Below are positions 5,831 through 23,980 of a DNA stretch of 36,421 nucleotides, in pieces (the stretch's first letter is position 1; every line of letters starts with the position of its first letter). Below the pieces are notes generated by a model that was given only the letters and a program-made list of their open reading frames with translations, was not told the DNA's origin and made no database searches. This DNA comes from Actinomycetota bacterium (lineage in GTDB: Bacteria; Actinomycetota; Actinomycetes; BP-191), in NCBI GenBank assembly GCA_040005895.1, contig JBDTYE010000001.1:1-36421 (forward strand). Reading direction: 5' to 3'. Position numbers and translations under genes: made by a program.

Positions 5831-6847
5831 ATGACGCCCAGCCAGCAAGCCGAGTACGCCGCCCGGCCGATCCGGTGGGGGATCGCCGGCCCCGGTGGCA
5901 TCGCGGCCAAGTTCGCCGCCGACTTCCCGCACCTGGACGGTGACGCCGAGATCGTTGCCGTCGGATCGCGCCGGCGCGCCACGGCGGATGAGTTCGGCGA
6001 CCGGTTCGGCATCGAACGCCGGCACGCGTCGTACGCCGATCTGGCCGCGGACGGCGGCGTCGACGCGGTCTACGTCGCAACGCCCCACCCCATGCACTAC
6101 GACACGGCGATGCTCGCCATCGAAGCCGGTAAGCACGTTCTCATCGAGAAGCCCTTCACGATCAACGCCGGCGAGGCGGGGCGGCTGGTTGCGGCAGCCC
6201 GCAACGCGGGCGTGCTGCTGATGGAGGCGATGTGGACCCGGTTCCTGCCGCACATGGACGACGTACGGCAGATCCTCGCGAGAGGCGAGCTCGGTGACAT
6301 CCGCACGGTGACCGCCGACCATGGCCAGTGGTTCGCGGAAGACGCGGAGTTCAGGCTCTTCGCGCCGGACCTTGGCGGGGGCGCGCTGCTCGACCTTGGC
6401 GTCTATCCGATCTCGTTCGCTTCGATGGTGCTGGGCAAGCCCGACCGCATCACGGCCGTCAGCGATCCGGCTTTCACCGGCGTCGACGCGCAGACTTCGA
6501 TGATCTTCCAGTACGACGCCGGCCGGCATGCGGTGCTCACGACGACTCTCCAGGCGGCGAGCGCCAATGTGGGCACGATCGTCGGCACCGAAGCGCGCAT
6601 CGAGATCGAGCGGACGTTCTACGCGCCGACGTCGTTCTCAGTGATCAGCCGGGCCGGCGAGGTGAGTCGGCACGAGCACCCGCGGATCGGCAACGGCCTG
6701 CGCTACCAGGCGGCCGAAGTGGCCCGTTGCCTGCGTGCCGGACTGCTGGAGAGCCCGTTGCTGCCGCTGGACGAAACGGTCGAGATCATGGAGACGATGG
6801 ACGAGGTACGTCGCCAGATCGGCCTGGTCTACCCGCAGGAAAAGTAG
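5831..6847 (+). CDS. Gfo/Idh/MocA family oxidoreductase
   Basis: 338 aa from the ATG at 5831. Contains IRWGIAGPGGIAAKFAADF (Rossmann GxGxxA) and VYVATPHPMHYDTAMLAIEAGKHVLIEKP (the EKP motif of the family). Confidence 0.85.
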   Translation: MTPSQQAEYAARPIRWGIAGPGGIAAKFAADFPHLDGDAEIVAVGSRRRATADEFGDRFGIERRHASYADLAADGGVDAVYVATPHPMHYDTAMLAIEAGKHVLIEKPFTINAGEAGRLVAAARNAGVLLMEAMWTRFLPHMDDVRQILARGELGDIRTVTADHGQWFAEDAEFRLFAPDLGGGALLDLGVYPISFASMVLGKPDRITAVSDPAFTGVDAQTSMIFQYDAGRHAVLTTTLQAASANVGTIVGTEARIEIERTFYAPTSFSVISRAGEVSRHEHPRIGNGLRYQAAEVARCLRAGLLESPLLPLDETVEIMETMDEVRRQIGLVYPQEK

Positions 6848-6912: not shown

Positions 6913-7827
6913 CTAGGAGTCCGGTTCGGCTGGACCGGTGTGGCCTGCCAGGAAGCGCTCGAGCTCGGCGCCGAGTTCGTCGGCCGTCGGCAGTCGGGTT
7001 GCGCCCTCAGCGAGCAGGTTGCGGCCCTGCCCGCGCAACACGGCGTCGTACTGGGATTCGAGCGCCGCAACAGCGGCAGCGATCTCCTCGGCGCCGGCGA
7101 CCTGCTCGTTGATGGACTCGAGCGCGGACCGGGCCGCGGTCGCGAGTTCGCCGACCGGGAGATCGAGGCCGGACGCGTCGGCGACGGCGCGCACCAGCGC
7201 CTCGGCGGCCGGTGCGAACTCGATCTGGGCGAGGTAATGCGGCACGTGTACAGCGAAACCGATGGCGTCGTGGCCCGCTTGGCCGAGCCGGTACTCGAGC
7301 AGGTTGCCGGCACTGGCGGGCACCTGAACCGTGCTGATCCAGTGCTCTGACGGCGGCACGATCTCCGGTCGGGTGCCGTGCGCAGTCATGCCGATCGGCC
7401 GCGTGTGCGGGACGCCCATCGGGATCGCGTTCAAACCGACAGTCAGGCGCACGCCCAGTGTCTCGATGACGTGGCGCACGGCTTCGCAGAAGCGGTCCCA
7501 CTGGATGTCGGGTTCGGGCCCGGACAGCACCAGGAAATGGGCGCCCTTAGCGTCGGTGAGCGCGGTGATGTCGAGCGAGGGTTCGTCGTACGCCGCCCAG
7601 GTGTCCTCGACGAAAGTCAGCAGCGGGCGCCTGGCCCGGTAGTCGAGCAGCTGGTCCACATCGAAGCGGGCAACGACGATCGCAGGGGAGGACTGCAACA
7701 GGTGGCTGCGAACCAGTTGACGCACCTGCCCAGCATCGACGAAACCGTCGAGTGCCTGGATGAGCACACAGCCGCTCAGGTCGGGCAGGTCGGGGGCCAG
7801 TTCATAGAGATCGGTTGGGTCCAGCAC
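6913..7827 (-). CDS. PAC2 (proteasome assembly chaperone 2-like) family protein
   Basis: The sequence VLDPTDLYEL...LIQALDGFVDAGQV...VLSGPEPDIQWDRF...GMTAHG...AVHVPHYLAQ matches the actinobacterial PAC2 family pattern. The GTG at 7827 is preceded by GGAGG 8 nt upstream. A longer alternative start lies at 7896. Confidence 0.75.
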   Translation of the reverse strand: MLDPTDLYELAPDLPDLSGCVLIQALDGFVDAGQVRQLVRSHLLQSSPAIVVARFDVDQLLDYRARRPLLTFVEDTWAAYDEPSLDITALTDAKGAHFLVLSGPEPDIQWDRFCEAVRHVIETLGVRLTVGLNAIPMGVPHTRPIGMTAHGTRPEIVPPSEHWISTVQVPASAGNLLEYRLGQAGHDAIGFAVHVPHYLAQIEFAPAAEALVRAVADASGLDLPVGELATAARSALESINEQVAGAEEIAAAVAALESQYDAVLRGQGRNLLAEGATRLPTADELGAELERFLAGHTGPAEPDS

Positions 7828-7920
7828 AGCGCTGCCTCCGCAGGTGGTGTTGCGATGTCTGCGCCCTATCCAACGCCAGGTGGACGACCGAGTCATACCT
7901 GCGTACGCCGATTGGCCGGC

Positions 7921-8232
7921 TCAGCCGCCCGCGATAGACGGAACGACGTCGACAAGGATCCCGTCCTGCAGGCGGGTCGTCGGCCCGCCGCTGTCGCGCA
8001 CGTCGATGCCGTCGACGTACACGTTGACGTGCCTTCGCAGGGCGCCTGTGTCGTCGCGCAGCCGTCGGCCAAGAACGGGGTACGCCGACGCGAGTTCGGC
8101 CAGCAGGCCAGCAACGGTCGCATCGTCGGCGGCGAGTTCGACGGGCAGGACACGCGCGCCCGCAACCGTGTCGGCCAGCGCTGCAGGCAGCATCACGCGA
8201 ACGCTGATGCGGTCGCCGGTCAGGGCAGCCAC
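7921..8232 (-). CDS. MoaD/ThiS family beta-grasp protein with C-terminal Gly-Gly
   Basis: 103 aa ending ...LVDVVPSIAGG followed by the stop. The length and the pattern ISVRV...LP...VNVYVDG are typical of sulfur-carrier/ubiquitin-like proteins. Its start overlaps the upstream gene's stop by 13 nt. Confidence 0.7.
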   Translation of the reverse strand: MAALTGDRISVRVMLPAALADTVAGARVLPVELAADDATVAGLLAELASAYPVLGRRLRDDTGALRRHVNVYVDGIDVRDSGGPTTRLQDGILVDVVPSIAGG

Positions 8233-9302
8233 GCGGCGCGCAGGGACAGTACGTCGGGAAGGTGCTCGGCCACGGAGACGAACGAGTCGCCCTCATCGGC
8301 GCTGGCGTAGACGCACCCGTCCCGTGTGCCGACGTAGACACCCGCGGGATCGCCGCTGTCGACACAGGCGGCGTCGCGCAGCACCGACACCCAGCAGTCG
8401 TCGGGCAACCCCGCCCCGAGCTCGCGCCAGGTCGCGCCTGCGTCATCGGTTCGGTGGACGCGCAGTCGCCCAGCAGGCGGGACGCGCTCACCGTCTGCTA
8501 CCAGGGGCACGACCCAGGCCGTGCCGGAACGGGAGGGGTGCGCCAGGATCGTGAATCCGAAGTCGCTCGGCAGACCGTCGGCGATCGAGGCCCAGGAGGC
8601 GCCCGCGTCGTCAGAGCGGTAGACGCCGTGATGGTTCTGCGCGTAGAGCCGCTGCGGCCCGGCCGCATCCGCGACGACCTTGTGCACGCACTGCCCGAAC
8701 TCGGGCTCAGGTCCAGGGATGAAGTAGGCGGAGATGCCGCTGTTGGACGGCCGCCATGAGGCGCCGCGGTCGTCCGAGGCGTAGACGCCTCCTGTCGACA
8801 TCGCGGCGACCACGCGGTCGGAGCGGGGATCCGGGATCACCGTGTGCACGGCGGCGCCACCGAAGCCTGGATGCCATTGCGGCCGGTGCGGGTGGTCCCA
8901 GAGGCCGTCGACGATGGCGAAGGACTGCCCGCCGTCCTGGCTGCGCCACAGCGACGTCGGCTCGCAGCCGGCCCACACCACATCTTCGCGGCCCGCCGAG
9001 TCAGGCTGCAGTTGCCACACCCGTTCGAGACTGGCCCCCGCCGTTTCGTCGAAGCGGATCGCGCCGTTGGGCGTCTCCTCCCACGTGGCGCCCAGATCAT
9101 CCGACCACTTCACTGTCGGGCCCCAGTGCTCGCTGCGTACGCCGACGAGCAATCGGGCGGGCGTCCGCCGGACGTCGAAGGCAACCGCAGGCACTTCGCG
9201 CATCAGGAAATGCGGGCCGTCGAGCCGCCAGTCGGATCGTGCCTCGTCACTGTGCGCGAGCCACAATCCCTTGCGGGTACCGATCGCCAGCACCGTTCGC
9301 AT
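8220..9302 (-). CDS. BNR/Asp-box repeat beta-propeller protein (sialidase-like fold; WD40/YVTN/BNR-like)
   Basis: 360 aa from the ATG at 9302 (MRTVLAIGTRKGLW). Six Asp-box-like motifs: SDDLGATW, SQDGGQSF, SDDRGASW, SDDAGASW, TDDAGATW, SADEGDSF. Confidence 0.8.
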   Translation of the reverse strand: MRTVLAIGTRKGLWLAHSDEARSDWRLDGPHFLMREVPAVAFDVRRTPARLLVGVRSEHWGPTVKWSDDLGATWEETPNGAIRFDETAGASLERVWQLQPDSAGREDVVWAGCEPTSLWRSQDGGQSFAIVDGLWDHPHRPQWHPGFGGAAVHTVIPDPRSDRVVAAMSTGGVYASDDRGASWRPSNSGISAYFIPGPEPEFGQCVHKVVADAAGPQRLYAQNHHGVYRSDDAGASWASIADGLPSDFGFTILAHPSRSGTAWVVPLVADGERVPPAGRLRVHRTDDAGATWRELGAGLPDDCWVSVLRDAACVDSGDPAGVYVGTRDGCVYASADEGDSFVSVAEHLPDVLSLRAAWLP

Positions 9303-9415
9303 CTGCGGTCTCCTCGCGTGCCTGTGCGTGTGCACCGCGGCCATCTGCCGCGCTGCGGTCAGCCAACCGGCGCGCGGCGTACGGGTCAAGGGCAGCGGCC
9401 GGGCATGATGGGCGC

Positions 9416-10003
9416 ATGACGTCAGGCGACGAGTTCACCCTGCGCCGGCACGCAGCGCGCGCCGGCGCCCTCATCGAGGTGACGCAGAGCCTTGCCGATG
9501 CCGGCACCGATCTGCCGCGGCTGGCCGACCTGGTGCTCGACCGGGTCGCGCAGCTCGTGGGTGACGCAGTCACTGTCTGGACGCTGCCTGTGGGCGCTTC
9601 CGATGTCGTCGCGGCCGGCAGCACGCACATTGACGAGCAGGCCCGGCGAATGCTCGCGGACATCCAGGTCAACGCCGGACCGCAGAGTGCCGATGGCATC
9701 ACCCGAGCCGTGATCGACACGGGTGAACCGCTCGTGATCTACGACTTCGCCTACGAGGACTACGTCGAACGCATTCACCACACGTACCGGCCGTGGATGA
9801 AGCAGTACGGAGCGAGCAGCCTGGCGGTGTTGCCGATGCGGGCTCGCGGACGGGTGCTCGGCGCCATCGGCGCAACGCGGGACCGGGGGAGGCCGCAGTA
9901 CACGCAGTTCGAGATCGACTTCATGCAGGCGATCGCAGACATCGCCGCTGTGGCGTTCGACAACGCGCACCTTCTCGCCGGCGAGGGCAACTCCCCGAGC
10001 TGA
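9416..10003 (+). CDS. GAF domain-containing protein
   Basis: 195 aa from the ATG at 9416 (MTSGDEF...). The pattern ...SLAVLPMRARGRVLGAIGATRD...FEIDFMQAIADIAAVAFDNAHL is typical of a stand-alone GAF domain. The rest of the 8756..10003 ORF is antisense shadow of the BNR gene. Confidence 0.75.
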   Translation: MTSGDEFTLRRHAARAGALIEVTQSLADAGTDLPRLADLVLDRVAQLVGDAVTVWTLPVGASDVVAAGSTHIDEQARRMLADIQVNAGPQSADGITRAVIDTGEPLVIYDFAYEDYVERIHHTYRPWMKQYGASSLAVLPMRARGRVLGAIGATRDRGRPQYTQFEIDFMQAIADIAAVAFDNAHLLAGEGNSPS

Positions 10004-10110
10004 TTTCTCCGGGATCGGCTGATTCCGCCGTGAGTACTCGACTTCACCCGACGGTTGGTGGTTCAGCGTGTCGTCAACCGGTGGCTGGTTTGTTCCGTCA
10101 TGCTCAATGC

Positions 10111-10149
10111 GTGAAGGCCCCTCCAAGTATGAGTTGGAGGGGCCTTCAC
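10111..10149 (-). terminator. Hairpin GTGAAGGCCCCTCCAA-GTATGAG-TTGGAGGGGCCTTCAC (perfect 16-bp stem, 7-nt loop)
   Basis: Read directly. There is no U-tract on either strand, which is common for actinobacterial terminators. It could also terminate the GAF gene from the plus strand. Confidence 0.5.
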
Positions 10150-10357
10150 CGGGTCCCGGTTGCCCGCGACCCCTGCCACCGAAAGCGGCACCCGCCGCTG
10201 CCGACTCAGTCCGCTGCGTCGCGCGGGTCGCCCCGTGCATCGCTGCGTCGCTGTGCCTGGCTGCGTCCGTTGCCCCTCCGTTGGCGCCGGCTTCGGTTTC
10301 CCTCCGCCGTGGCGCCTCCGGATGGTCCCGGTAGCGAGCCTCCGTGTTCGGTGACGT
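10111..10357 (-). ncRNA. Candidate structured sRNA, copy A (about 245 nt; boundaries inferred from promoter and hairpin)
   Basis: Lies between a conserved minus-strand promoter (10364..10393) and a perfect 16-bp-stem hairpin (10111..10149). No ORF is conserved with copy B. The 5' CACCGAA can pair with TTCGGTG just upstream of the terminal hairpin. Confidence 0.4.
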
Positions 10358-10363
10358 GCAGCG

Positions 10364-10393
10364 ATTTCTAACGGTCCCGCGAGCGCGTGGCAA
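10364..10393 (-). promoter_or_regulatory. Candidate sigma-70/HrdB-type promoter, unit A: TTGCCA-N17-TAGAAAT
   Basis: On the minus strand the -35 TTGCCA is at 10388..10393 and TAGAAAT is at 10364..10370. Both hexamers and the 17-nt spacing are conserved with unit B, but the spacer sequence is not. An A5 tract lies about 28 nt upstream of the -35. Confidence 0.55.
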
Positions 10394-10601
10394 GAGGGTT
10401 GGCGAACTTTGTTCCGAGAAGTTTTTCTTTCCACAGCTTGCGCAGGGTTTTCCCCTGAACCCAAAGGGTTTTCCACCTCGCCGTGCACAGCTGCATCCAC
10501 ACCCGGACCGTTATGCAGTCCGGCCGGAGGCAGCCGCCGCGCCCTCGCTGACGGGGCGATGAGATGGCGATCATGCGGGCCGAAAAGGTCCGGAAATAGG
10601 T

Positions 10602-10640
10602 GTGAGGGCCCCTCCAAGTATGAGTTGGAGGGACCCTCAC
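10602..10640 (-). terminator. Hairpin GTGAGGGCCCCTCCAA-GTATGAG-TTGGAGGGACCCTCAC (16-bp stem, one mismatch)
   Basis: Paralogue of the 10111..10149 hairpin with an identical loop. Stem position 5/35 changes from A-T to G-C, a compensatory change. Confidence 0.5.
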
Positions 10641-10857
10641 GTGGTCAGCTCTTGCGAACTGACCCAGCCACCGTTTTCGAGCGCCTCACGCGACCTGCTC
10701 GCCTTCGTCCGCCCCTACCGGAGTCGCCTCCGATCAGTACGAACGTCCGCGTGCCTGCCACTCCCTCTGGCGGTCCTGCCATCGCGCCACGACTCCGGTT
10801 GCCCTTCGCCGTGCCACTCCGGAGACCTCCCGGTGCGAGTCGCCGTGCTCGGTGACG
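10602..10857 (-). ncRNA. Candidate structured sRNA, copy B (about 255 nt; boundaries inferred)
   Basis: Same architecture as copy A: promoter at 10864..10893 and hairpin at 10602..10640. The 5' CACCGAGC can pair with GCTC...GGTG before the hairpin, so the A-to-G change relative to copy A is matched on the partner strand. Confidence 0.4.
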
Positions 10858-10863
10858 TGGGTG

Positions 10864-10893
10864 ATTTCTAAACCAGCCGAACCCCCATGGCAA
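10864..10893 (-). promoter_or_regulatory. Candidate sigma-70/HrdB-type promoter, unit B: TTGCCA-N17-TAGAAAT
   Basis: On the minus strand the -35 TTGCCA is at 10888..10893 and TAGAAAT is at 10864..10870, exactly 500 bp from the unit A elements. An A6 tract lies about 25 nt upstream of the -35. Confidence 0.55.
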
Positions 10894-10925
10894 GAGGAAA
10901 TCCGAAGTATTTCCAGGATTTTTTG

Positions 10926-11048
10926 CTGTCCACAGCGGCTGCCTGCTTGTCCCCCGAAATCTCCTCGTTTTCCCCCGGCCGCTCCCCGTTGTCCACCGGT
11001 TGTACACGGGTTCGTCCACAGCGCAGGTTTGCCGGCCCGTTGTCCACA
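10926..11048 (+). promoter_or_regulatory. Cluster of same-orientation TTGTCCACA-type 9-mers (actinobacterial DnaA-box consensus)
   Basis: The 9-mers are:
- CTGTCCACA 10926..10934;
- TTGTCCACC 10989..10997;
- TTGTACACG 11000..11008;
- TCGTCCACA 11012..11020;
- TTGTCCACA 11040..11048 (perfect).
Weaker TCCAC(A/C) cognates sit at the equivalent places in unit A (10427..10435, 10469..10477, 10493..10501). Confidence 0.4.
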
Positions 11049-11123
11049 CCCGGGAAATCCCGAGATGTCGGAGTGGCTAACGTGACGCCCCATGACGGGT
11101 AACCAGCAGTCGCCGGCCCGCTG

Positions 11124-11417
11124 ATGTGCGGCATCGAAGTCCAGGTCGAGTCGCTGGCCGACGTCGGCAGGCGGCTCACGCTCGCCGCCCAGGTGGCCGG
11201 TGACATCGAGAAGCTGTGGGCCGCACCGGATCTGCTGGCGGGCGCCCGTGATTGCGGTGACGAGCAGTTCGCCGGGGCTATCGCCCGCTTCCTCCTCACG
11301 TGGGGCTATGGGTGCGCCGCCCTGCACGCTGACGCCAAGACGCTCGCGGGCCTGCTCAGAAGGGCCGGTGCCATCTACCTCGATGTGGAATCGGCGATCG
11401 CTGCCGGTGCTCCATGA
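11124..11417 (+). CDS. EspC/DUF2580-like small helical protein (type VII secretion target-like)
   Basis: 97 aa. The N-terminal IEVQVESLADVGRRL... and C-terminal ...LAGLLRRAGAIYLDVESAIAAG resemble the EspC-type pattern (L.V.p..L ... aa..Y...d.a). Its stop overlaps the start of the next gene (ATGA at 11414..11417). Confidence 0.5.
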   Translation: MCGIEVQVESLADVGRRLTLAAQVAGDIEKLWAAPDLLAGARDCGDEQFAGAIARFLLTWGYGCAALHADAKTLAGLLRRAGAIYLDVESAIAAGAP

Positions 11418-12880
11418 CCGAGCTCACTGCAGGTGCCGGCGCGACGACGCTCCTTCCCGGTAACCCGGAATCTGTCCGGGATCTGGCCCGGCGACTGGAG
11501 ACCCTTGCCGGCGGGCTCGACGACGCGGCCGTCCACTTGGCTGCAATCCAGTCGGGCACCTGGCGTGGCAGCGCCGGAGACGCGTTCAGGTCGGTGCTCG
11601 ACGAGCAGCCGGCGACCTTCCGTCGTGCGGCGGCGTCCTTCGGCCAGGCGCGCGTGGCGTGCACCCACTACGCGGATGTGCTGGAGGGCGCGCAGCGCAC
11701 GGCCGCTCGGGCTGCGTCGGAATTCGATTAATCGCAGCGGGTCACGCGCGGATGGCAGGCCCAGGTCTCGGCATACCGGTCGGCGATGCATCCCTGCCTG
11801 CCCGTCGGCGCTCCGGCACCTACGCCGCAGTCACTGGGCCCACAGCCGCCGGCCATCGATCCCGGGGCCGGCCAACGGCTGTACGCCGAGTCGTTGCTCG
11901 AGGGGGCACGTGCCGAGGTGCGCGCCACGGGCGGTCGCGCTGCCGCGATGATCGAGGAAGCGGCCCGAAGCGCGCCCAGGCGACCCAACCTCCTGCATCA
12001 GGCGGGACACCAGTTCACGGAATTCGGAGGCGGTCTCGGGCAAGCTGTTGTGGGCATGGCTGACTTCGTCGTCACCTACAGCCCGGAGCGGCTGGCGCTG
12101 GACCCGGACGGATGGGCCGATGACGTGGAGTTGCTCGGCCACGGTCTGAAGAGTTCGGCTCGGCACCCTGACCGGTTCGCGGCAGCCGTGCTCGACCTGA
12201 AGACGTGGGAGACGTCACCGGCACGGGCGCTGGGGCATCTGGCGCCGACCGTGTTCCTGGCGGCCGCTACTGCCGGCGGCAGCGCTGTTGCCACCGCGAG
12301 CGCAGAGGCCGTCACCGCCACCGCCACCGGCGCGGCGGTGGCCGGTGGCATCAGCGAGGTGGCGAAGGGTTCAACCATCGTTCCTGCTCTCGCCGATGTG
12401 GGGGAGCTCGATCGGCTTCGGCACGAGGTGTCCGGGGGCAGCCACCCAGCGGGGTTCACACCTGGTGATGGATCGGCGGCAGCGCGCGCGACCGCGGAGC
12501 ACATCGCACTGGGCGGAAATGTCGAGAGTGCCTGGTACAACACGAGACTGCGCGCAGGCGACGTGATCGCAACAGTCGAATCCGGTACACGCGATGGCGC
12601 CGACAACGTCATGGCCGTGCCGGTCCGCAGCGCGCCCGCGATGGCCGACCGCGAGCAGGGAGCGCCGATGCCTGGCTCGGTCTCTGCGAGACTCACGTCG
12701 ATCACGGTGTACCGGATCAGCAAGGACATCGACGTCGCCGCCGCTCACGCTCGGCAAATCCGACCACCGGGCTTCATCGGGCCGATGGCTGCGAACTCGA
12801 TCCGCATCTACATTCCCGATCTGCGCGACCTCATCGCCCGCGGCGTCCTCACTCCAGTTCAGATCCCGGTCGGCAGCTAG
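11414..12880 (+). pseudogene. T7SS-signal (WXG-like) N-terminal domain polymorphic-toxin-like gene interrupted by an in-frame TAA at 11729..11731
   Basis: ORFs 11414..11731 and 11786..12880 are in the same frame and separated only by the TAA. The N-terminal part, LLPGNPESVRDLARRLETLA...GTWRGSAGDAFRSVL...FGQARVACTHYADVLEGAQRTAARA, matches the family annotated as putative T7SS-secreted proteins. The helical pattern continues straight across the stop (EFD*SQRVTRGWQAQVSAYRSAM...DPGAGQRLYAESLLEGARAEV). Confidence 0.65.
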
Positions 12881-12886
12881 ACCTGC

Positions 12887-15800
12887 TCACTGACGAAGCT
12901 GGTCGATGGCGCGCACTACCCGCTGCTCGGAAACCGGATACGCGGTCTTCAGCACCTGCGCGAAATAGCTGATGCGCAGCTCCTCGATCATCCAGCGGAT
13001 CTGCGTGACCGCCTCGTCGCTCCGGCGAGCGGCCGGCAGGGAGGCGACGAGGTCGGCGTACTGCTGCTGCACGTGTTCGACTGCTTGCATCCACCCGCGG
13101 TCGCGGGCCGGGTTGTCCGGCAGCTTCTCCAACCGGCGTTCTATGCCCTGCACGTAGCGAGCGACGTCACCGAGTCGCGGCACTCCCGTCTCCGTCACGA
13201 ACCCTGGGTAGACCAGCGCCTTGAGCTGGCTGCGCATGTCGGTCAGTGCTGGCAGCACTATCAGACTGGTGGCGTTCCCGAGCCGAGGCTCGAGGTCGGC
13301 GGTTGTCGACAGAATCCGTGCGACCTGGATCACGACGGCGTACGCCGCCTCGGCCAGTCCCGCCCGCACCACCGTCAGCAGCTTTGTCCAGTCGGCTTCG
13401 CTCCAGACGAGCCCGCCGTTGGCCGCGACCAGCGAATCGATCGCGCAGTCGGTGCAATCGGCAAAAAGTGCGGCCGGGCTGTTGTGGGGCGGGTGTGACA
13501 GGGCCAGCTTGGTCTCGTTGGTCAACCGTGACAGTACCGAGCGCGTCGGCGCGGGGGCGTTGAGCGCCAGCAATCGGCGCAACCCAAGACGCATCGAAGC
13601 GAGTTGCTCGGCCGGTGTCGGAAGAACGCGCAGTGCCACCGACTCGCCGGCCGCCACCAGTGCCGGGTAGCCCACGATCCGGTGGCCGTCGCGGGTCTCC
13701 TCGAAGATCTGCGCCACGTCGCCGAAGTCCCAGCTACGCAGGCCGGTTCGCTCGATAGATGCAGCGACCCGCGAGACGGTGGCTCGGACGGTCGGCTGCA
13801 GCTGGTGCTTCAGGGCGTCGAGATCCGGCGACTCGCCCAGGGTGCGACCGTCGTCGGCGACGACCCGGAAGGTCATCAGCAGGTGCGCCGGCACCCGCTC
13901 CGGCGCGAAGTCCGACCCCAGCACGACCACGCCTGCCATCGCGGTGAGCTCTCGTGCCAGAGCGATTGTGAGCTGCTCGGCGTACGGCGTCATCCGCTCG
14001 CGCGCCGCTTTGGCGTAGTTGGGCGCTGGAATGAAGCTGGTGCGGATGGCCTTGGGCAGTGAGCGGATGAGCGCAGTGATCAGGTCCTCGCGCAATGCGG
14101 GGATCTGCCAGCCGAAGGCTTGCGATTCGACCCGGTTGAGGATTGCCAGTGGTAGCACCACGGTGACGCCGTCAGCCGCACCTCCGGGATCGAAATGGTA
14201 GACGAGCCGCAGCGACAGGTCTCCGTAGGGCCAGTTGTCCGGGTAGTCGCTCTCCCGCACGCGCTCGCCTGCGATCAGCATTTCTCGTGAGAACGTCAGA
14301 AGGTCGGGGCGGGTACGCCGCTCCAGTTTCCACCAGGCATCGAAGTGCCGGCCCGAGACCACGTCCGCGGGTATCCGTTCGTCGTAGAACGCGAACAGGT
14401 CGTCGTCCGAGACGAGGATGTCGCGGCGGCGGACCCGGTGCTCGAGCTGCTCGACTTCGTCGAGCAGTTCGCGGTTGCGCGCGAAGAACGCGTGGTGCGT
14501 ACGCCAGTCGCCCTCGACCAGCGCATGCCTGATGAACAGTTCGCGGGCGAGTGCCGGGTCGACCTCCGAGTAGGTCACCTTGCGACCCGTGACCAGCGGT
14601 ACGCCGTAGAGCGTCACCCGCTCGAAGGCGACGACGGCGCCGTGCCGCGCCTCCCAGTGCGGCTCGTTGTAGGTGCGCGCGACGAGGTGCGCCGCAAGGG
14701 GCTCGACCCATTCGGGCTCGATCCGCGCGATGATCCGCCCCCACAGCCGGGAGGTCTCCACGAGCTCGGCCGCCATCGCGAAGCGCGGCGGCTTCTTGTA
14801 GAGCGCGGACCCGGGAAACACCGCGAATCGCGCACCGCGGGCGCCGAGATAGTCCTTCTTCTCGGCATCCCGCAGGCCGATGTGCGAGAGCAGGCCGGCG
14901 AGCAGGGAGATGTGCATGCGCATCGGTGCGGCGACCTGCTTGTCGTCGGTCCGGATACCGATGCTGCGGGCGGCGGAGCGCAGCTGGCTGTAGAGGTCCT
15001 GCCACTCGCGGACGCGCAGGTAATGGAGGAATTCGCCCTTGCACAGCCTGCGAAAGGCGCTCGAGGAAAGCGCCCGCTGCTGCTCCTGCAGGTGGTTCCA
15101 CAGGTTGAGGTAGGCCAGGAAATCCGACGTCGGGTCGGCGAAACGGGCATGGAGCTGGTCGGCGTACTGCTGCTTGTCCACCGGACGCTCCCGCGGGTCC
15201 TGGATCGACAGCCCGGCAGCGATGACGAGGACCTCGTGCACGCAGCCGTTCCGGTCGGCCTCGACGACCATGCGCGCCAGCCGCGGGTCGACCGGCAGTT
15301 GCGCGAGCTGCCTGCCGATCGCAGTCAGTTGCTTCTTCGGGTCGGTCCGGCCCGGCTCGAACGCGCCGAGTTCCTCGAGCAGCTGTACGCCGTCCCGCAC
15401 GTTGCGCCGGTCCGGCGGGTCGAGGAACGGGAACGCGCCGATGTCGCCGAGGCCGAGCGAGGTCATGGCGAGAATGACCGATGCCAGGCTGGTCCTGACG
15501 ATCTCGGGGTCGGTGAACTCGGGCCTCTGGAGGAAGTCTTCTTCCGCGTACAGCCTGATGCAGATGCCGTCGGAAAGCCTGCCACAGCGGCCTTTCCGCT
15601 GGTTCGCCGAGGCCTGCGAGATCGACTCGATCGGCAGTCGCTGCACTTTGAGCCGCTGGCTGTAGCGGGAGATACGCGCGGTGCCGGGATCAACGACGTA
15701 CCGGATGCCAGGGACGGTCAGTGAGGTCTCCGCGACGTTGGTCGCGAGCACGACGCGCCGCTCGGAGTGCCGTTCGAAGACCCGGTGCTGCTCGGCCGAT

Positions 15801-16771
15801 GACAGCCGGGCGTAGAGGGGCAGGATTTCGGTGTCGGGAAGCCGCAGGCCGTTGAGCGCGTCGGCCGTGTCGCGGATCTCCCGCTCGCCGGAGAGGAACA
15901 CCAGGACGTCGCCGGCACCCTCCGTCCAGAGTTCCTCGACGGCGTTGCTGATTGCCTGGATCTGATCGACGTCGATGTCGTCGTCGAAGGGCCGGTAACG
16001 CACTTCGACCGGGTAGGTCCGGCCGGACACTTCGACGACGGGCGCATCGCCGAAGTGCGCAGAGAACCTCAGCGGGTCGATGGTCGCGGACGTGATGACG
16101 ACCTTGAGGTCGGGCCGGCGGGGGAGCAGCGCTTTGAGGTAGCCGAGGATGAAATCGATGTTGAGGCTGCGCTCGTGCGCCTCGTCGATGATCAGCGTGT
16201 CGTACTGCCACAAGGACCGGTCGTTCTGCAGTTCGGCGAGCAGGATCCCGTCGGTCATCACCTTGACCAGCGTGTTGTCGCTGGAGTGATCGGTGAACCT
16301 GATCTTGTATCCGACAGTTTCGCCGATCGTCGTACCCAGCTCCTCGGCGATCCGGTCGGCGACGGATCGCGCGGCGATGCGCCGCGGCTGGGTGTGGCCG
16401 ATGGTGCCGGTGACGCCGCGGCCGAGTTCGAGGCAGATCTTGGGCAGCTGGGTGGTTTTACCCGAGCCGGTTTCGCCCGCGACGATGACGACCTGATGGT
16501 CTCGGATCGCGGCCAGGATCTCGTCCTTGGCCAAGCTGATCGGCAGATCCGGCGGATAGCGGATCTCTGGTATGCCGCCTGAGCGGCTGGCGATCCGGGC
16601 CGCCGCGGCGTCGAACCGGGCCGTGAGATCGGCAAGCGCCGTCTGCGCGCGGGCTGGATCGAGCTTGCGGGTGTGATCGAGGCGACGCGCCAGATCGCGC
16701 TGATCGCGCAACATCAGCCGCGGAATGCGCTCGGCCAGCTCCTCGGCGAGCGTGACGGCTGACATCTCCAT
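12887..16771 (-). CDS. hrpA: ATP-dependent RNA helicase HrpA (DEAH-box)
   Basis: 1294 aa from the ATG at 16771 (MEMSAVTLAEEL...). Motifs: GETGSGKTTQLPK, IIDEAHERS, SATID, TNVAETSLTVPGI, QRKGRCGR, plus the long HrpA C-terminal region. The upstream 149 codons of the ORF are Arg-rich shadow that overlaps the divergent gene. Confidence 0.95.
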   Translation of the reverse strand: MEMSAVTLAEELAERIPRLMLRDQRDLARRLDHTRKLDPARAQTALADLTARFDAAAARIASRSGGIPEIRYPPDLPISLAKDEILAAIRDHQVVIVAGETGSGKTTQLPKICLELGRGVTGTIGHTQPRRIAARSVADRIAEELGTTIGETVGYKIRFTDHSSDNTLVKVMTDGILLAELQNDRSLWQYDTLIIDEAHERSLNIDFILGYLKALLPRRPDLKVVITSATIDPLRFSAHFGDAPVVEVSGRTYPVEVRYRPFDDDIDVDQIQAISNAVEELWTEGAGDVLVFLSGEREIRDTADALNGLRLPDTEILPLYARLSSAEQHRVFERHSERRVVLATNVAETSLTVPGIRYVVDPGTARISRYSQRLKVQRLPIESISQASANQRKGRCGRLSDGICIRLYAEEDFLQRPEFTDPEIVRTSLASVILAMTSLGLGDIGAFPFLDPPDRRNVRDGVQLLEELGAFEPGRTDPKKQLTAIGRQLAQLPVDPRLARMVVEADRNGCVHEVLVIAAGLSIQDPRERPVDKQQYADQLHARFADPTSDFLAYLNLWNHLQEQQRALSSSAFRRLCKGEFLHYLRVREWQDLYSQLRSAARSIGIRTDDKQVAAPMRMHISLLAGLLSHIGLRDAEKKDYLGARGARFAVFPGSALYKKPPRFAMAAELVETSRLWGRIIARIEPEWVEPLAAHLVARTYNEPHWEARHGAVVAFERVTLYGVPLVTGRKVTYSEVDPALARELFIRHALVEGDWRTHHAFFARNRELLDEVEQLEHRVRRRDILVSDDDLFAFYDERIPADVVSGRHFDAWWKLERRTRPDLLTFSREMLIAGERVRESDYPDNWPYGDLSLRLVYHFDPGGAADGVTVVLPLAILNRVESQAFGWQIPALREDLITALIRSLPKAIRTSFIPAPNYAKAARERMTPYAEQLTIALARELTAMAGVVVLGSDFAPERVPAHLLMTFRVVADDGRTLGESPDLDALKHQLQPTVRATVSRVAASIERTGLRSWDFGDVAQIFEETRDGHRIVGYPALVAAGESVALRVLPTPAEQLASMRLGLRRLLALNAPAPTRSVLSRLTNETKLALSHPPHNSPAALFADCTDCAIDSLVAANGGLVWSEADWTKLLTVVRAGLAEAAYAVVIQVARILSTTADLEPRLGNATSLIVLPALTDMRSQLKALVYPGFVTETGVPRLGDVARYVQGIERRLEKLPDNPARDRGWMQAVEHVQQQYADLVASLPAARRSDEAVTQIRWMIEELRISYFAQVLKTAYPVSEQRVVRAIDQLRQ

Positions 16772-16825
16772 GGGTCGGGTCAGAATACCGAGAGCGGTAG
16801 CCTCGGGTGACCCTAGGAGCCACGG

Positions 16826-17443
16826 ATGCCAGCCGTACAGTGCCCGAACTGTGACAGCCACGACATAGATGCGGTCGGCAAGACGCCCGCCGGCGACCTG
16901 CAACTCAAATGCGACGATTGCGGCACGGAGTGGACTCGCACCCCGAATCGTCCCTGCCCGAAGTGCGCCGCAATCGACGTCACGCACACCGACGCGGCTG
17001 GCTACCTGTGCCGCGGCTGCGGGCACAGCTGGCGTGACATCCCGATGGCGCCGCCGGAGCCGGTGCCGGTCAAGGCGACGCGCGCGCGAGCCGTCAAGTC
17101 CACCGCGGCCAAGTCGGCCGCCACGGTCGCCACCGTCGCGGCGACTGAAGCTGGGCGACCGGTCTTGGGCGGTGCGGCGCACCGGGTCGGCGCGGTTTGG
17201 GAAAAACTCGAAACGCATGCCGGCGAGCCGTTCACGCTCAAGAGCGGCCAGCAGTTCAGCTACCAGGTGAGCGCTGACGTGCTGATGCCCACAAGCGCCA
17301 ACTGGGACGTGCCCAAGGGCGAGTTCGCCGAGGCCTTACGCCGGATGCCCATTGCCGGTCCGGCGCAATTGAAGGACCTGCAGGCGGCGGCGTTCATCTT
17401 CGCTCTGCTGCAGGACGTGCGGATCGCTCCGGCCTGGCAGTAA
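16826..17443 (+). CDS. Hypothetical protein with two N-terminal CxxC...CxxC zinc ribbons
   Basis: 205 aa. Contains CPNCDSH..(17)..CDDCG and CPKCAA..(13)..CRGCG, then an Ala/Thr-rich linker and a C-terminal domain I do not recognise (FTLKSGQQFSYQVSADVL...). AGGAG lies 7 nt upstream of the ATG. The gene is divergent from hrpA across a 54-bp gap. Confidence 0.6.
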   Translation: MPAVQCPNCDSHDIDAVGKTPAGDLQLKCDDCGTEWTRTPNRPCPKCAAIDVTHTDAAGYLCRGCGHSWRDIPMAPPEPVPVKATRARAVKSTAAKSAATVATVAATEAGRPVLGGAAHRVGAVWEKLETHAGEPFTLKSGQQFSYQVSADVLMPTSANWDVPKGEFAEALRRMPIAGPAQLKDLQAAAFIFALLQDVRIAPAWQ

Positions 17444-21174: not shown

Positions 21175-21186
21175 CGGCAATTGCCG
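21175..21186. promoter_or_regulatory. 12-bp perfect palindrome CGGCAATTGCCG, 58 nt upstream of flp-1
   Basis: Read directly. It is AT-centred in a GC-rich leader, which makes it a candidate operator. Confidence 0.3.
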
Positions 21187-21243
21187 ATCTTCCTATCTCT
21201 GGCCCCTCAACGGGCGCGGATCATCCTCCGAAAGGGGAGCACC

Positions 21244-21414
21244 ATGCTGGAGCTCATCGTCAAGTTGCAGAACCGTATGGCGAACGAAGACGGCGCGACC
21301 GCCGTTGAGTACGGCATGCTCGTCGCACTGATCGCCGCCGTCATCGTCGGTACCGTCGCCGCTCTCGGCACCCAGATCAACGGTGCTTTCCAGACGATCG
21401 TCACGGCTCTGTAG
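21244..21414 (+). CDS. flp: Flp family type IVb pilin (copy 1)
   Basis: 56 aa, MLELIVKLQNRMANEDG/ATAVEYGMLVALIAAVIVGTVAAL. It has the canonical Flp G/ATAVEY processing motif and hydrophobic helix. GGGGAG lies upstream. Confidence 0.9.
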   Translation: MLELIVKLQNRMANEDGATAVEYGMLVALIAAVIVGTVAALGTQINGAFQTIVTAL

Positions 21415-21488
21415 TTCGCGCAATCAGGATGTCGCAGCGCCCGCAGTTTTCTTGTGGGCGCTGCGACTACTTACAGACAAGGGCTGCC

Positions 21489-21647
21489 ATGCGCGGGTTT
21501 GGTGCATTCCGAAACGTTGACGACCGCGACTCCGGTGCGACGGCGGTCGAATACGCATTGCTGGTGGCGTTCATTGCTACCACTATCGTCGGTGCCGTTG
21601 GCGCGCTCGGCGTAGTGCTCGGCCCGATGTTCGCGATCACGTGGTAG
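21489..21647 (+). CDS. flp: Flp family type IVb pilin (copy 2, divergent)
   Basis: 52 aa, MRGFGAFRNVDDRDSG/ATAVEYALLVAFIATTIVGAVGAL. It has the Flp motif but its C-terminus differs from copy 1. Confidence 0.85.
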   Translation: MRGFGAFRNVDDRDSGATAVEYALLVAFIATTIVGAVGALGVVLGPMFAITW

Positions 21648-21657
21648 GTGCTGAGCG

Positions 21658-22059
21658 ATGTTTCGGTCACTGAGGACACGGCGCATTCGAGACGATGCGG
21701 GAGCGTCCGCCGTCGAGATGGCGATCCTGCTCCCCGTGTTGATGGCCATCCTCTTCGGCGTCCTGGAGTACGGCGCCTATTTCTTCAACCGTATGACGCT
21801 GTCGCAGTCGGCCCGGGAGGGTGTCCGCCTGCTCGCCCTCGGCTCCACCTCGGCCAGCGCGCAGACGCGAGCGACGTCGGCCGCCGCCCCTCTCACGGGA
21901 GTGACCTTCCCGACCACGACCATCTGCCCGGTCGGCGCAGCCTTGACCGCGAACGCGACTCTTGCGGTCCGCCGGACGGTCAATTTCCCGTTCCCGCTGC
22001 CGGGCCTGACCACTTCGACAGTCATTACAGAGACGGCGGTGATGAGATGCGGCGTGTAG
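21658..22059 (+). CDS. tadE: TadE-like pseudopilin
   Basis: 133 aa. The N-terminus DDAGASAVEMAILLPVLMAILFGVLEYG is a TadE/TadF-type N-terminus. Confidence 0.85.
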   Translation: MFRSLRTRRIRDDAGASAVEMAILLPVLMAILFGVLEYGAYFFNRMTLSQSAREGVRLLALGSTSASAQTRATSAAAPLTGVTFPTTTICPVGAALTANATLAVRRTVNFPFPLPGLTTSTVITETAVMRCGV

Positions 22060-23102
22060 TTGGTGACGACAGCGGTGCGGTTGCGATATTCGTGGCAATC
22101 ATGGCCTTCGTCCTCATCGGGTCGTTGGCACTCGCCGTAGACGTCGGCGGTCGGTATCAGGAACGCCGCCAGATGCAGAATGCAGCGGACGCTGGTTCGC
22201 TGGGAGTGGCCAAGGACTGCGCTACGAAGGCTACCTGCCCCGTCGCCCCCGCCACGACTACCGCGAACGGCTACCGGTCGAGCAACACGACGGTCAGCAA
22301 CTCGTCTATCACGCGGGTATGCGGTCCGGCGGCCACGACGTTGCCGGCTTGTCCAGCGAACCAAGGGCCGTGGGACTGTCCGTTATTGCCGGGCGGCGCT
22401 CTTGCGACCGCGCCCTACGTCCAGGTGGAGACAAAGGCCTGGGCCCCGCCGCTGTTCGCTGGCGTATTCGGTAACACCGGAAACTGGGTCCGTTCGTGCG
22501 CTCGTGCGTCCTGGGGCAGCCCGGGCAGCCTCTCAGCCGCTTTGCCGATCACGCTGTCGAAGTGCGAGTTCGACAATGCCTTGCCACTGAAGGCGTTGCC
22601 GATTCCGCCGTACCCCGGCCCGTCCACGGTGATCTACCTGCACGATCCGGATCCAACGCACGTGTGCAAGGACAGCAGGAGTGGTGCGGATCTTCCCGGC
22701 GGATTCGGCTACCTGAGTACGTCGACGTGTACGTCCGTCATCAGTGACCTGCTGGGTTGGTTCGACGACAAGACGGGCAACTCGCCGCCGTCGTCGTGCT
22801 CCAATGCGATCTTCAGTGCGCTCGTCGGCACGACGATTCAGCTTCCGATCTTCAACGATCTGAACGGATCCCCGGGCACGAACGGGGCTTATCGGATGTA
22901 CGGCTACGCGTCGTTCGTCCTCACGGGTTACCAGCTCGGCGGACAGTACAAGCAGAAGGACGCCTCGCGCGGCAACGCCTTTCCTTGCTCGAATCCACAG
23001 AACTGCATCAGCGGTTTCTTCGTCAGCAACCCGGTGCCCACCCAAGGAACCATCGGTGGACCCCCGGGCACGGGCGTTGCCGTCGTCCAATCCAGCGGCT
23101 GA
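22047..23102 (+). CDS. TadG-related pilus assembly protein (Tad_N/TadE-G-like N-terminus)
   Basis: 351 aa from the ATG at 22047. Contains GDDSGAVAIFVAIMAFVLIGSLALAVDVG...QMQNAADAGSL and a Cys-rich C-terminal domain with LPGGFGYL. Overlaps tadE by 13 nt. Confidence 0.75.
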   Translation: MRRVVGDDSGAVAIFVAIMAFVLIGSLALAVDVGGRYQERRQMQNAADAGSLGVAKDCATKATCPVAPATTTANGYRSSNTTVSNSSITRVCGPAATTLPACPANQGPWDCPLLPGGALATAPYVQVETKAWAPPLFAGVFGNTGNWVRSCARASWGSPGSLSAALPITLSKCEFDNALPLKALPIPPYPGPSTVIYLHDPDPTHVCKDSRSGADLPGGFGYLSTSTCTSVISDLLGWFDDKTGNSPPSSCSNAIFSALVGTTIQLPIFNDLNGSPGTNGAYRMYGYASFVLTGYQLGGQYKQKDASRGNAFPCSNPQNCISGFFVSNPVPTQGTIGGPPGTGVAVVQSSG

Positions 23103-23129
23103 TACGCCGAAACGAGGGGAAGATTTCAC

Positions 23130-23978
23130 GTGACGCGAAGGATTGTCCTTTTCATTGTTGCTTTGTTGCTTGCGACGCTCGGCATGCTCGCCGTGCTCGT
23201 TTATGTACGCGACGCGGACTCGCGTGCCGTCGCTGCTAACTCACCGGTCACGGTCGTCGTGGCGAAGAGCGAGATTGCTGAAGGCACAACCGTCGAGGAG
23301 GCGTTGAGTAAAGGCGATCTCGCGACGCAGGAGTTCGCGGCCTCAGCCGTGCCGTCGGAGGCGGCGAGGACAACATCTGAGTTCAGTGGGCAAGCGCTGA
23401 CGACAATTTACAAAGGCCAGATCGTCGCGCCGACCTTATTCGGTTCGCCCCCGGCCGCCCCTCTGAAGTTTCCGATTCCAGCCGGGAAGATGGCGCTGGC
23501 AATTCAGGTGAGCGATGCGCAGCACGTCGGACAGTTCCTGGAGCCGGGTGCACACGTAGCGGTCTTCGATACCTTCACCAGCAGCACCGGCGACAAGGGT
23601 CCGTGGACGCCGAGCGGTGACGGGCTCTCCCAGAATTTCGACAACAACCAGGCGACCCGGCTGCTGCTCGACCGGGTCGACGTCCTCGCCGTGGGCGCAA
23701 CCACCACCGTCGTCGCCCAGAACAGCAGCTCCCCTGACACCAGCTCCCCCGGAACCGGCTCGAAGGACAAGACGGCGTCCGACGCCGCTAAGAGCGCGGC
23801 TGCGACACCTGTCGCGACAACCTCGGTTCTGCTGACGCTTGCAGTCGATCAGGCGCAGGCTCAGAAGCTGATTCACGCCTCGCAGACCGGCAGTCTGTAC
23901 TTCACGTTGCTGTCGGACAGCTACACCCCGAAACCTGCTCCCGGAGTCGACAACCGCAACCTCTTCGACGGGAAGTAG
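23130..23978 (+). CDS. cpaB: Flp pilus assembly protein CpaB/RcpC (SAF domain)
   Basis: 282 aa, GTG start. Signal-anchor IVLFIVALLLATLGMLAVLVY, then VTVVVAKSEIAEGTTV (SAF-like), typical of CpaB. Confidence 0.85.
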   Translation: MTRRIVLFIVALLLATLGMLAVLVYVRDADSRAVAANSPVTVVVAKSEIAEGTTVEEALSKGDLATQEFAASAVPSEAARTTSEFSGQALTTIYKGQIVAPTLFGSPPAAPLKFPIPAGKMALAIQVSDAQHVGQFLEPGAHVAVFDTFTSSTGDKGPWTPSGDGLSQNFDNNQATRLLLDRVDVLAVGATTTVVAQNSSSPDTSSPGTGSKDKTASDAAKSAAATPVATTSVLLTLAVDQAQAQKLIHASQTGSLYFTLLSDSYTPKPAPGVDNRNLFDGK

Positions 23979-23980
23979 TC

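Follow-up and report, generated by a model that had tools for sequence, protein, structure and literature searches.

To our knowledge, neither Hfq nor CsrA occurs in Actinobacteria, and few of the abundant structured RNAs of these bacteria are understood. Ms1 and the Corynebacterium RNA CoRP were recognised only recently. Tandemly duplicated small RNA (sRNA) genes include PrrF1/PrrF2 of Pseudomonas, OmrA/OmrB of E. coli and AbcR1/AbcR2 of alpha-proteobacteria, and clusters of DnaA boxes outside oriC include datA and DARS1/2 of E. coli and the D78 cluster of Streptomyces. Here we describe two units, A and B, on the minus strand of contig JBDTYE010000001.1 from an Actinomycetota bacterium (positions 1 to 36,421; this whole stretch is called the window). 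They are best explained, and probably so, as two tandem, independently transcribed genes for an unannotated family of structured sRNAs with a repeat-array module upstream, and not as homologues of Ms1 or 6S RNA. As in the PrrF, Omr and AbcR pairs, the paralogous genes are adjacent, each with a candidate promoter and terminator of its own, and both would be under the control of the same upstream regulator site. Those sRNAs are short (~90-150 nucleotides, nt) and base-pair through single-stranded seeds, whereas the RNAs predicted here are 180-270 nt long and almost fully paired, and a hairpin loop is their most conserved element. The locus resembles datA, DARS and D78 in having several close DnaA-box-like 9-mers away from dnaA and dnaN. 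Unlike in those clusters, the array stands at a fixed distance upstream of the conserved putative promoter of a structured RNA gene, most boxes are imperfect and DnaA binding is only predicted.

Ms1 (Ms1 of M. smegmatis, MTS2823 of M. tuberculosis and scr3559 of S. coelicolor) is an actinobacterial stand-alone, single-gene transcription unit of ~230-300 nt whose RNA is GC-rich, folds strongly, pairs at its ends and has a hairpin at the 3' side, and the units resemble it in all of these. The RNA forms a long hairpin, with a central bubble that is conserved, and has two short hairpins towards its ends (PMC4191392). On one side of the gene lies a HAD-IB hydrolase/phosphoserine phosphatase gene followed by a CpaE-like gene, and on the other an oxidoreductase, glycoside hydrolase, Fic or PH gene (PMC9130861, Tables 1-3). 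Unlike Ms1, the units are rich in GNRA-capped hairpins, have an invariant terminal loop (CUCAUAC) and a DnaA-box-like array upstream and usually occur in tandem; they have no sequence similarity to Ms1 and no HAD-IB hydrolase or oxidoreductase flank. The 6S RNAs (Rfam RF00013 and relatives) are also structured sRNAs, of ~200 nt with a closing stem, that serve as protein decoys, and some species have two paralogues (6S-1/6S-2 in B. subtilis; see PMC11077062). However, 6S RNA is a rod with a central bubble and its paralogues are dispersed, whereas the predicted fold of the units is multibranched with GNRA hairpins, the paralogues in the window are adjacent and no covariance model matches them at E<=10. 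CoRP is an abundant, structured, RNA polymerase-binding RNA of its own lineage that is seen as two pieces of 318 and 198 nt (PMC11077062). It differs from the units in being one cleaved 516-nt transcript, AT-richer and encoded between tRNA genes (tRNA-Gln/tRNA-Glu).

Judged by comparison of sequences, the units belong to a conserved, non-coding, strand-specific gene family under structural constraint, whose members have a conserved module upstream and end in a hairpin with an invariant loop, and the window holds two of them. They lie in a 1.1-kb gap without genes. A first-pass annotation, made from the letters of the window, had proposed that the minus strand carries a pair of paralogous genes for structured non-coding RNAs, each with its own promoter, and our analysis supports this. 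It had placed them at 10101-10893, an extent that proved too short: the units reach ~165 bp further upstream into the repeat array, and the feature spans ~10107-11050. Each unit consists of the conserved upstream module, a promoter-like block (CTCTTGCCA-N17-TAGAAATC), a GC-rich body of 250-260 nt and a 16-bp hairpin with the loop CUCAUAC. The closing helix, the penultimate hairpin and the terminal hairpin are termed P1, D2 and D3. The predicted features are as follows.

10859..11050, minus strand: regulatory module of unit B, with phased DnaA-box-like direct repeats, an A/T-rich stretch and the promoter-like block; matches the profile built from other lineages
11048-11040 (TGTGGACAA), 11020-11012 (TGTGGACGA), 11008-11000 (CGTGTACAA), 10997-10989 (GGTGGACAA), 10955-10947 (GGGGGACAA) and 10934-10926 (TGTGGACAG), minus strand: boxes of unit B; TGTGGACAA is a perfect TTGTCCACA on the plus strand
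10893-10888 (TTGCCA, in CTCTTGCCA) and 10870-10864 (TAGAAAT), minus strand: -35-like and -10-like elements of unit B
10598..10858, minus strand: predicted RNA of unit B, ~257-261 nt, its probable start 6-7 nt past TAGAAAT
10856-10850 (GUCACCG) with 10673-10667 (CGGUGGC), minus strand: P1 of unit B, enclosing a multibranch domain with GNRA-type hairpins
10643..10664, minus strand: D2 of unit B, GGUCAGUUC-GCAA-GAGCUGACC, capped by a GNRA tetraloop
10602..10640, minus strand: D3 of unit B, 16-bp stem, loop CUCAUAC at 10624-10618, one U-G pair (a C-A mismatch on the plus strand)
10360..10512, minus strand: regulatory module of unit A, a weaker copy of the repeat array (e.g., GGTGGAAAA, TGTGGAAAG)
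10393-10388 (TTGCCA) and 10370-10364 (TAGAAAT), minus strand: -35-like and -10-like elements of unit A
10107..10358, minus strand: predicted RNA of unit A, ~247-252 nt
10355-10347 (GUCACCGAA) with 10183-10175 (UUCGGUGGC), minus strand: P1 of unit A
10172-10151, minus strand: D2 of unit A, GGGUCGCGG-GCAA-CCGGGACCC
10111..10149, minus strand: D3 of unit A, perfect 16-bp stem, loop CUCAUAC at 10133-10127

The paired blocks noticed in the first pass are not a chance pattern: CTCTTGCCA-N17-TAGAAATC occurs exactly twice in the window, at 10896-10863 and 10396-10363, 500 bp apart, where shuffled sequence is expected to contain 0.00 copies. After each block comes the 5' motif CACGTCACCGA(A/G)CACGG (10859-10843 and 10358-10342; two seen, 0.06 expected). 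The two 16-bp hairpins with an identical 7-nt loop, at 10111-10149 and 10602-10640, are the only ones in the window (chance expectation 0.00), and an exact 24-nt D3 core is present in both. All of these elements were found where they had been reported. The compensatory change claimed between the hairpins is present as well: hairpins A and B differ by an A-T to G-C double change, and a T-G position in unit B pairs only in minus-sense RNA. Overall, the two units align at 70-79% identity. The TAGAAAT-ending block is the putative promoter and D3 the putative terminator; in unit B, D3 is likely to be the transcript end or a terminator. D3 of unit A sits 108 nt beyond the stop codon of the convergent GAF gene, and so may terminate that gene too.

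A search with the GAF protein identified two contigs from metagenome-assembled genomes (MAGs) that are syntenic with the window, one of the Pseudonocardiales (L001) and one of the Mycobacteriales (L002). Both have the gene order hrpA, repeat array, promoter block, unit B, hairpin, unit A, hairpin and convergent GAF gene. The comparison with relatives proposed in the first pass finds the two-unit layout kept, no conserved open reading frame (ORF), and compensatory changes beyond the terminal hairpin. Among the three lineages, flanking proteins share only 65-87% identity and the unit B copies 77-83%. The window has a unit A of 252 nt, L002 one of 192 nt (6639-6830) and L001 one of ~121 nt (2492-2612), which has lost its promoter module. 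The unit A of the window is 60% and 44% identical to its positional orthologues, L001:2492-2612 and L002:6639-6830, respectively, and 70% identical to the unit B of the window; being nearer to unit B than to its own orthologues, it suggests gene conversion or re-duplication in the window lineage. In this lineage, unit B is the conserved copy, and unit A is best explained as a drifting duplicate that was partly re-homogenised against B.

Scanning metagenome contigs for the exact 21-nt D3 core gave 56 loci, and one further member was found in a Streptosporangiaceae MAG (L064). In all, the family was recovered at ~60 loci outside the window, every one of them in a metagenome or MAG (Pseudonocardiales, Mycobacteriales and Streptosporangiaceae). 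Searches based on a linked PAC2-family gene placed carriers among uncultured Mycobacteriales, Pseudonocardiales, Frankiales-like and Streptosporangiaceae lineages. Tandem pairs on one strand occur at 26 loci (loop-to-loop spacing 187-1729 nt), true singles (one unit with at least 900 nt free on both sides) at nine, and 25 contigs are too short for assignment. A tandem pair is not unusual, as had been supposed, but the norm in the family. Many pairs are old, distinct paralogues, for example a ~225-nt form starting CACCACC upstream of a ~265-nt form starting CACCGCUAAAGCGG. Members have bodies of 130-270 nt and a D3 of 15-18 bp with the loop CUCAUAC and the upper stem CCUCCAA/UUGGAGG. Four loci (L005, L039, L046 and L051) look different: some lack a TAGAAAT block within 340 nt, or have unusually long, repetitive bodies of GNRA hairpins. 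The bodies of L005 and L051 contain several copies of CCGGGCAACCGG; the four loci may be longer or divergent members. A full-text literature search for the hairpin, 5' motif and GNRA-hairpin strings returned only chance matches in unrelated papers, and a search joining DnaA boxes, small RNA and actinobacteria found no papers. The family is absent from Rfam 15 and was not found in the literature. It is a previously unannotated family, found in soil actinobacteria and usually in tandem.

Selection on structure, asserted in the first pass, is borne out by compensatory changes in the terminal hairpin, the penultimate hairpin and internal helices. Compared with dinucleotide shuffles, both units fold strongly (z = -6.7 and minimum free energy (MFE) -144.4 kcal/mol for unit B; z = -9.0 and -151.8 kcal/mol for unit A), as do their bodies (z = -4.8 for B and -6.0 for A), and each contains three GNRA-capped hairpins where ~0.5 are expected. 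Over 31 representatives of the family, bodies without D3 have a median z of -5.2, with 29 of the 31 below -3. GNRA-capped hairpins are eight times as common as expected (105 against 12.7; 2-6 per body), typical examples being CCGG-GCAA-CCGG, GGGG-GAAA-CUCC and CCGA-GCAA-UCGG.

Substitution patterns point the same way, although the covariation counts come from MAFFT-based alignments and are indicative rather than calibrated. For the three unit B orthologues, RNAalifold predicts 91 pairs, eight of them with both sides changed, and D2 of unit B has compensatory double changes in five of its nine pairs among the window, L001 and L002. Pairs with both sides changed are also found in hairpin H1, in subfamily II (18/54 pairs) and in subfamily III (11/68 pairs). 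On a cross-subfamily alignment, RNAalifold recovers only three short hairpins. Over 37 units, D3 is paired in 99.8% of cells and covaries in eight of 15 pairs, including the outer stem; none of 500 shuffles and no slid register came near the observed score. Units found through the promoter have variant D3 stems (CCUGCAU/AUGUGGG, CCCCCAU/AUGGAGG, CCUCCAU/AUGGAGG, CCUCCAC/GUGGAGG and CCUCCAA/UUGGGGG) with A-U, U-A or C-G as the loop-closing pair, and all keep the loop CUCAUAC. The G-U pairs in D3, which are many, and the T-rich tails of most members occur only in the RNA sense, and this fixes the RNA strand.

A further claim of the first-pass annotation was a helix between the 5' end and the stretch that immediately precedes the 3' hairpins. 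P1, whose register differs between subfamilies of the family, is predicted in both window units. When the 5' strand is paired with the 20 nt before D2, cognate strands do better than non-cognate ones (-10.1 against -8.6 kcal/mol; permutation p = 0.0006); an earlier, cruder test of the 5' strand against the whole body gave no signal (p = 0.49). Between unit A of the window (GUCACCGAA/UUCGGUGGC) and its L001 counterpart (GUCACCGGA/UCCGGUGGC), P1 contains an A-U to G-C switch, and the claim stands.

The upstream module of ~165 bp comprises 5-6 same-orientation, helically phased repeats (core TGTGGA), an A/T-rich stretch and CTCTTGyGC-N17/18-TAGAAAT. Aligned upstream regions have three direct repeats, yTGTGGAy, spaced 11-12 bp apart, then a GGGGGATAAC box, two more TGTGGA repeats 11 bp apart, AAAGAATCTTGAAA and CCTCTTGyGC. 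All 45 non-redundant units first extracted carry TTGnnn-N17/18-TA(G/C)A(A/C)AT. A profile built on 36 units of other lineages, from their putative promoters and the sequence upstream of these, matches unit B over its full length (11026-10864, E = 1.2e-14) and unit A at 10506-10362 (E = 6.8e-12), with no other significant match in the window. Boxes were counted as sites with <=2 mismatches to TGTGGACAA, the reverse complement of TTGTCCACA, which is the DnaA box of M. tuberculosis and S. coelicolor and the actinobacterial consensus (PMC4285127 Table 1). Per 117 nt there are 3.6 boxes in the RNA orientation, against 0.27 in the opposite orientation and 0.29 in shuffles, and they stand at fixed positions (-77, -88, -98, -119, -130 and -142). 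Upstream of unit B lie one perfect box and five with 7-8/9 matches to TTGTCCACA. The perfect one (11040-11048, plus strand) is the sole perfect DnaA box of the window and is far from any dnaA or dnaN. The array may be a regulator binding site that gates transcription, and DnaA is the best candidate because the boxes match TTGTCCACA at 7-9 of nine positions.

Several points weigh against this account. The family is patchy: four of the five contigs fetched via the linked PAC2 gene (L059, L061, L062 and L063) have no unit within 10 kb. The bodies of the window units, with D3 and promoter removed, do not match an nhmmer profile of bodies from other lineages (E > 0.3), so that family membership rests on the module, D3 and shared architecture; body sequence turns over fast between lineages while folding stays. 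The invariance of the D3 core is partly by construction, because an exact 21-mer served to gather the members. Perfect DnaA boxes are rare (four in 61 upstream regions; none in 749 kb of other DNA), and an OmpR-type response regulator would fit the phasing of the direct repeats equally well. The first pass had seen the footprint of a real promoter in TTGCCA/TAGAAAT. The block is conserved across ~60 units, and its status as a putative promoter rests on this and not on fit to a consensus: a simple sigma-70 scanner does not call it, and it does not score as canonical, because the A2/T6 register is missing from the TAGAAAT heptamer. A U-tail follows D3 only weakly in unit B and not at all in unit A. 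The start site, end and abundance of the RNAs are all predictions from the DNA, and the conserved neighbours imply no partner protein.

The best-surviving rival, which we nevertheless consider unlikely, is that the units are Ms1/6S-class RNAs, either homologues or convergent analogues, that would be abundant in stationary phase and bind RNA polymerase, as core or holoenzyme, via an open-promoter-like bubble. Their size (250-260 nt), stand-alone gene with its own promoter and 3' hairpin, paired ends and strong folding resemble Ms1 (PMC4191392, PMC9130861), and verified Ms1 cannot be told apart from the units by how many hairpins, multiloops and internal loops their MFE folds contain. RNA polymerase-binding RNAs that are unrelated to one another have evolved more than once in actinobacteria, CoRP being an example (PMC11077062). 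Homology, which the first pass had suggested, finds no support in any search. Rfam 15, 6S models included, has no match at gathering score, whether in the window or in 14 loci; the covariance-model search that had been recommended also returned nothing relevant at E<=10 in 9900-11250, nor at E<=1 in L018, L038 and L053. As Ms1 queries we used the M. smegmatis Ms1 verified by rapid amplification of cDNA ends and the S. coelicolor scr3559/Ms1 (supplements of PMC4191392 and PMC9130861), with BLASTN at word size 7 and +1/-1 scoring as in PMC9130861, and with nhmmer. Neither query has a BLASTN match to units A or B, and the window and loci give nothing better than E = 0.08; an nhmmer profile of the family finds nothing in verified Ms1. 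The same procedure recovers colinear matches between the M. smegmatis and S. coelicolor Ms1 (E = 3e-6 and 0.004), which served as the positive control. C. glutamicum CoRP gives no BLASTN or nhmmer match.

The window contains neither of the motifs shared by the Ms1 RNAs, GCACCCACGCG and ACGCTTGGT, and verified Ms1 has 0-1 GNRA-capped hairpins against a median of three in family units. Ms1 synteny is absent from the window, which has no HAD gene, and from the ~60 related loci. Pseudonocardiaceae and Streptosporangiaceae are, moreover, reported to have a separate Ms1 at the HAD-hydrolase locus (PMC9130861, Table 4, Table S2). The Tad locus 10 kb away had been taken as an Ms1-like context, but it is of a different type (RcpC/CpaB-containing, with no HAD-IB neighbour). 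We also looked for a canonical Ms1 beside it and rejected the candidate, since the apparent 'gap' at 18.1-18.8 kb proved to be a coding gene and no HAD-IB gene is present. With no Rfam match, no Ms1 similarity and no Ms1 synteny, Ms1/6S homology is rejected. By analogy, RNA polymerase is possible as a partner of the unit RNAs.

It is distinctly improbable that the functional element is the DNA, that is, a DnaA-box cluster titrating or reactivating DnaA in the manner of datA or DARS, with auxiliary transcription and a functionless RNA. The module is the best-conserved part across lineages (E = 1e-14) while body sequence is undetectable across them, and the boxes are phased, in one orientation and close to TTGTCCACA, with one perfect copy in the window. 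However, compensatory changes keep the transcribed bodies folded, GNRA hairpins are strongly enriched, and the D3 loop is invariant while its stem covaries. None of this is expected to be maintained for an incidental transcript. Most boxes, in addition, match at only 7-8 of nine positions and perfect ones are rare.

A further reading, very improbable and for the most part already refuted by the comparisons, is that an intergenic segment was duplicated locally and recently and has no function, or that two REP-like terminator hairpins stand here beside promoter-like motifs that arose by chance. It would account for the decay of unit A in the relatives (shortened in L002, and shorter still and without promoter module in L001) and for the closeness of the window's unit A to its unit B. 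Against it, the two-unit layout is common to three lineages whose flanking proteins are as diverged as given above, pairs recur at 26 loci of distant lineages, the hairpin occurs only twice in the window, plasmid and phage collections have no match to the units, and unit B is conserved with structure-preserving substitutions. Least probable of all is that small proteins are the product of the gap, with RNA structure that is only incidental: both strands have long ORFs (e.g., 10063-10617, minus strand, 184 aa, and 10409-10855, plus strand, 148 aa), but they have no Pfam match at E<=0.1, the GC content of their third codon positions (0.58-0.74) is below that of flanking genes (0.82-0.88), their tblastn matches in L001 and L002 hop reading frames where the GAF control gives a single continuous 77-79% match, and length differences between units are not multiples of three, all in keeping with the first-pass view that no convincing coding sequence is present. 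That structure is conserved in the transcribed part speaks against this reading and the two before it.

The two sRNA genes, which remain our preferred reading, have the following neighbours in the window.

6913-7896, minus strand: PAC2-family gene (proteasome-assembly-chaperone-like)
Ends at 10003, plus strand: GAF-domain gene, convergent with the units
11124-12880, plus strand: small cassette, including a WXG100/T7SS-signal-like protein
12887-17218, minus strand: hrpA
21181-28556, plus strand: Tad/Flp pilus locus, containing RcpC/CpaB and without a HAD-IB hydrolase neighbour

The genes downstream of units are convergent and the flanking genes vary between lineages; thus, the units are stand-alone genes. 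In related loci the neighbours are ABC transporter, TrmH-like, acyl-CoA dehydrogenase and PAC2 genes. A PAC2 gene lies within ~6 kb of the RNA units in 11 related loci (L001, L002, L012, L013, L019, L021, L028, L029, L040, L041 and L044), at 42-80% protein identity, and marks a conserved chromosomal neighbourhood. The cassette, which lies between hrpA and the repeat array of unit B and is transcribed divergently from the same repeat-array region, encodes three products: 97 aa (no Pfam match), 105 aa (T7SS_signal/WXG100-like) and 364 aa (no Pfam match). As hrpA ends ~30-60 nt from the first repeat in both L001 and L002, the cassette is an insertion in the window lineage. A BNR/Asp-box repeat ORF (8220-9389, minus strand) overlaps the long GAF ORF (8756-10003, plus strand) by ~630 bp. 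Homology to relatives covers GAF residues 182-414 only, so the true start of the GAF gene is probably near 9290. The Tad locus encodes a Flp pilin, a TadE/G-like protein, RcpC/CpaB, a CpaE-like ATPase, CpaF and a 674-aa fusion of VWA and T2SSF (TadB/C-like), and differs from the 'helicase/secretion neighbourhood' type that adjoins Ms1. No tRNA genes were found in the window.

Some features of the RNAs recall parts of the translation machinery. The loop CUCAUAC (10618-10624, 10127-10133 and all related loci) has the format of an anticodon loop, Y32-U33-CAU-R37-N38. CAU in the D3 loop is a Met anticodon, and the complement of the loop contains AUG. The upper stem of D3, CCCCUCC/GGAGGGG, resembles a Shine-Dalgarno/anti-Shine-Dalgarno duplex, and the 5' ends of some units (AUCACCU, CACCACCUAA) faintly recall the 3' tail of 16S rRNA.

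We propose that a regulator, for which DnaA is the leading candidate, would bind the repeat array and gate transcription of an RNA made up of the closing helix P1, GNRA-capped hairpins, D2 and the terminal D3. The RNAs may act in trans, binding a protein or ribonucleoprotein partner via the invariant D3 loop, its upper stem and the repeated GNRA hairpins, perhaps serving as decoys or sponges as 6S/Ms1 or CsrB do. A bolder version, which we hold to be doubtful, is a riboregulator of replication status, in which a DnaA oligomer on the phased boxes would gate one or two decoy RNAs whose invariant hairpin captures a conserved component of translation or RNA processing. This version draws on the anticodon-loop format (C-U-CAU-A-C) atop the Shine-Dalgarno/anti-Shine-Dalgarno-like helix CCCCUCC/GGAGGGG.

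In practical terms, shape and neighbourhood alone are insufficient for annotating Ms1-sized RNAs as Ms1. The locus adds a conserved, typically tandem RNA family without an Rfam model, which combines a regulatory module, a closing helix, GNRA hairpins and an invariant loop. Binding of the array by DnaA or another regulator, if it occurs, would make the family a direct and testable link between a global DNA-binding regulator and a structured RNA. Should the replication riboregulator prove true, these RNAs would be a new structured-RNA class linking DnaA to gene expression in Actinomycetota.

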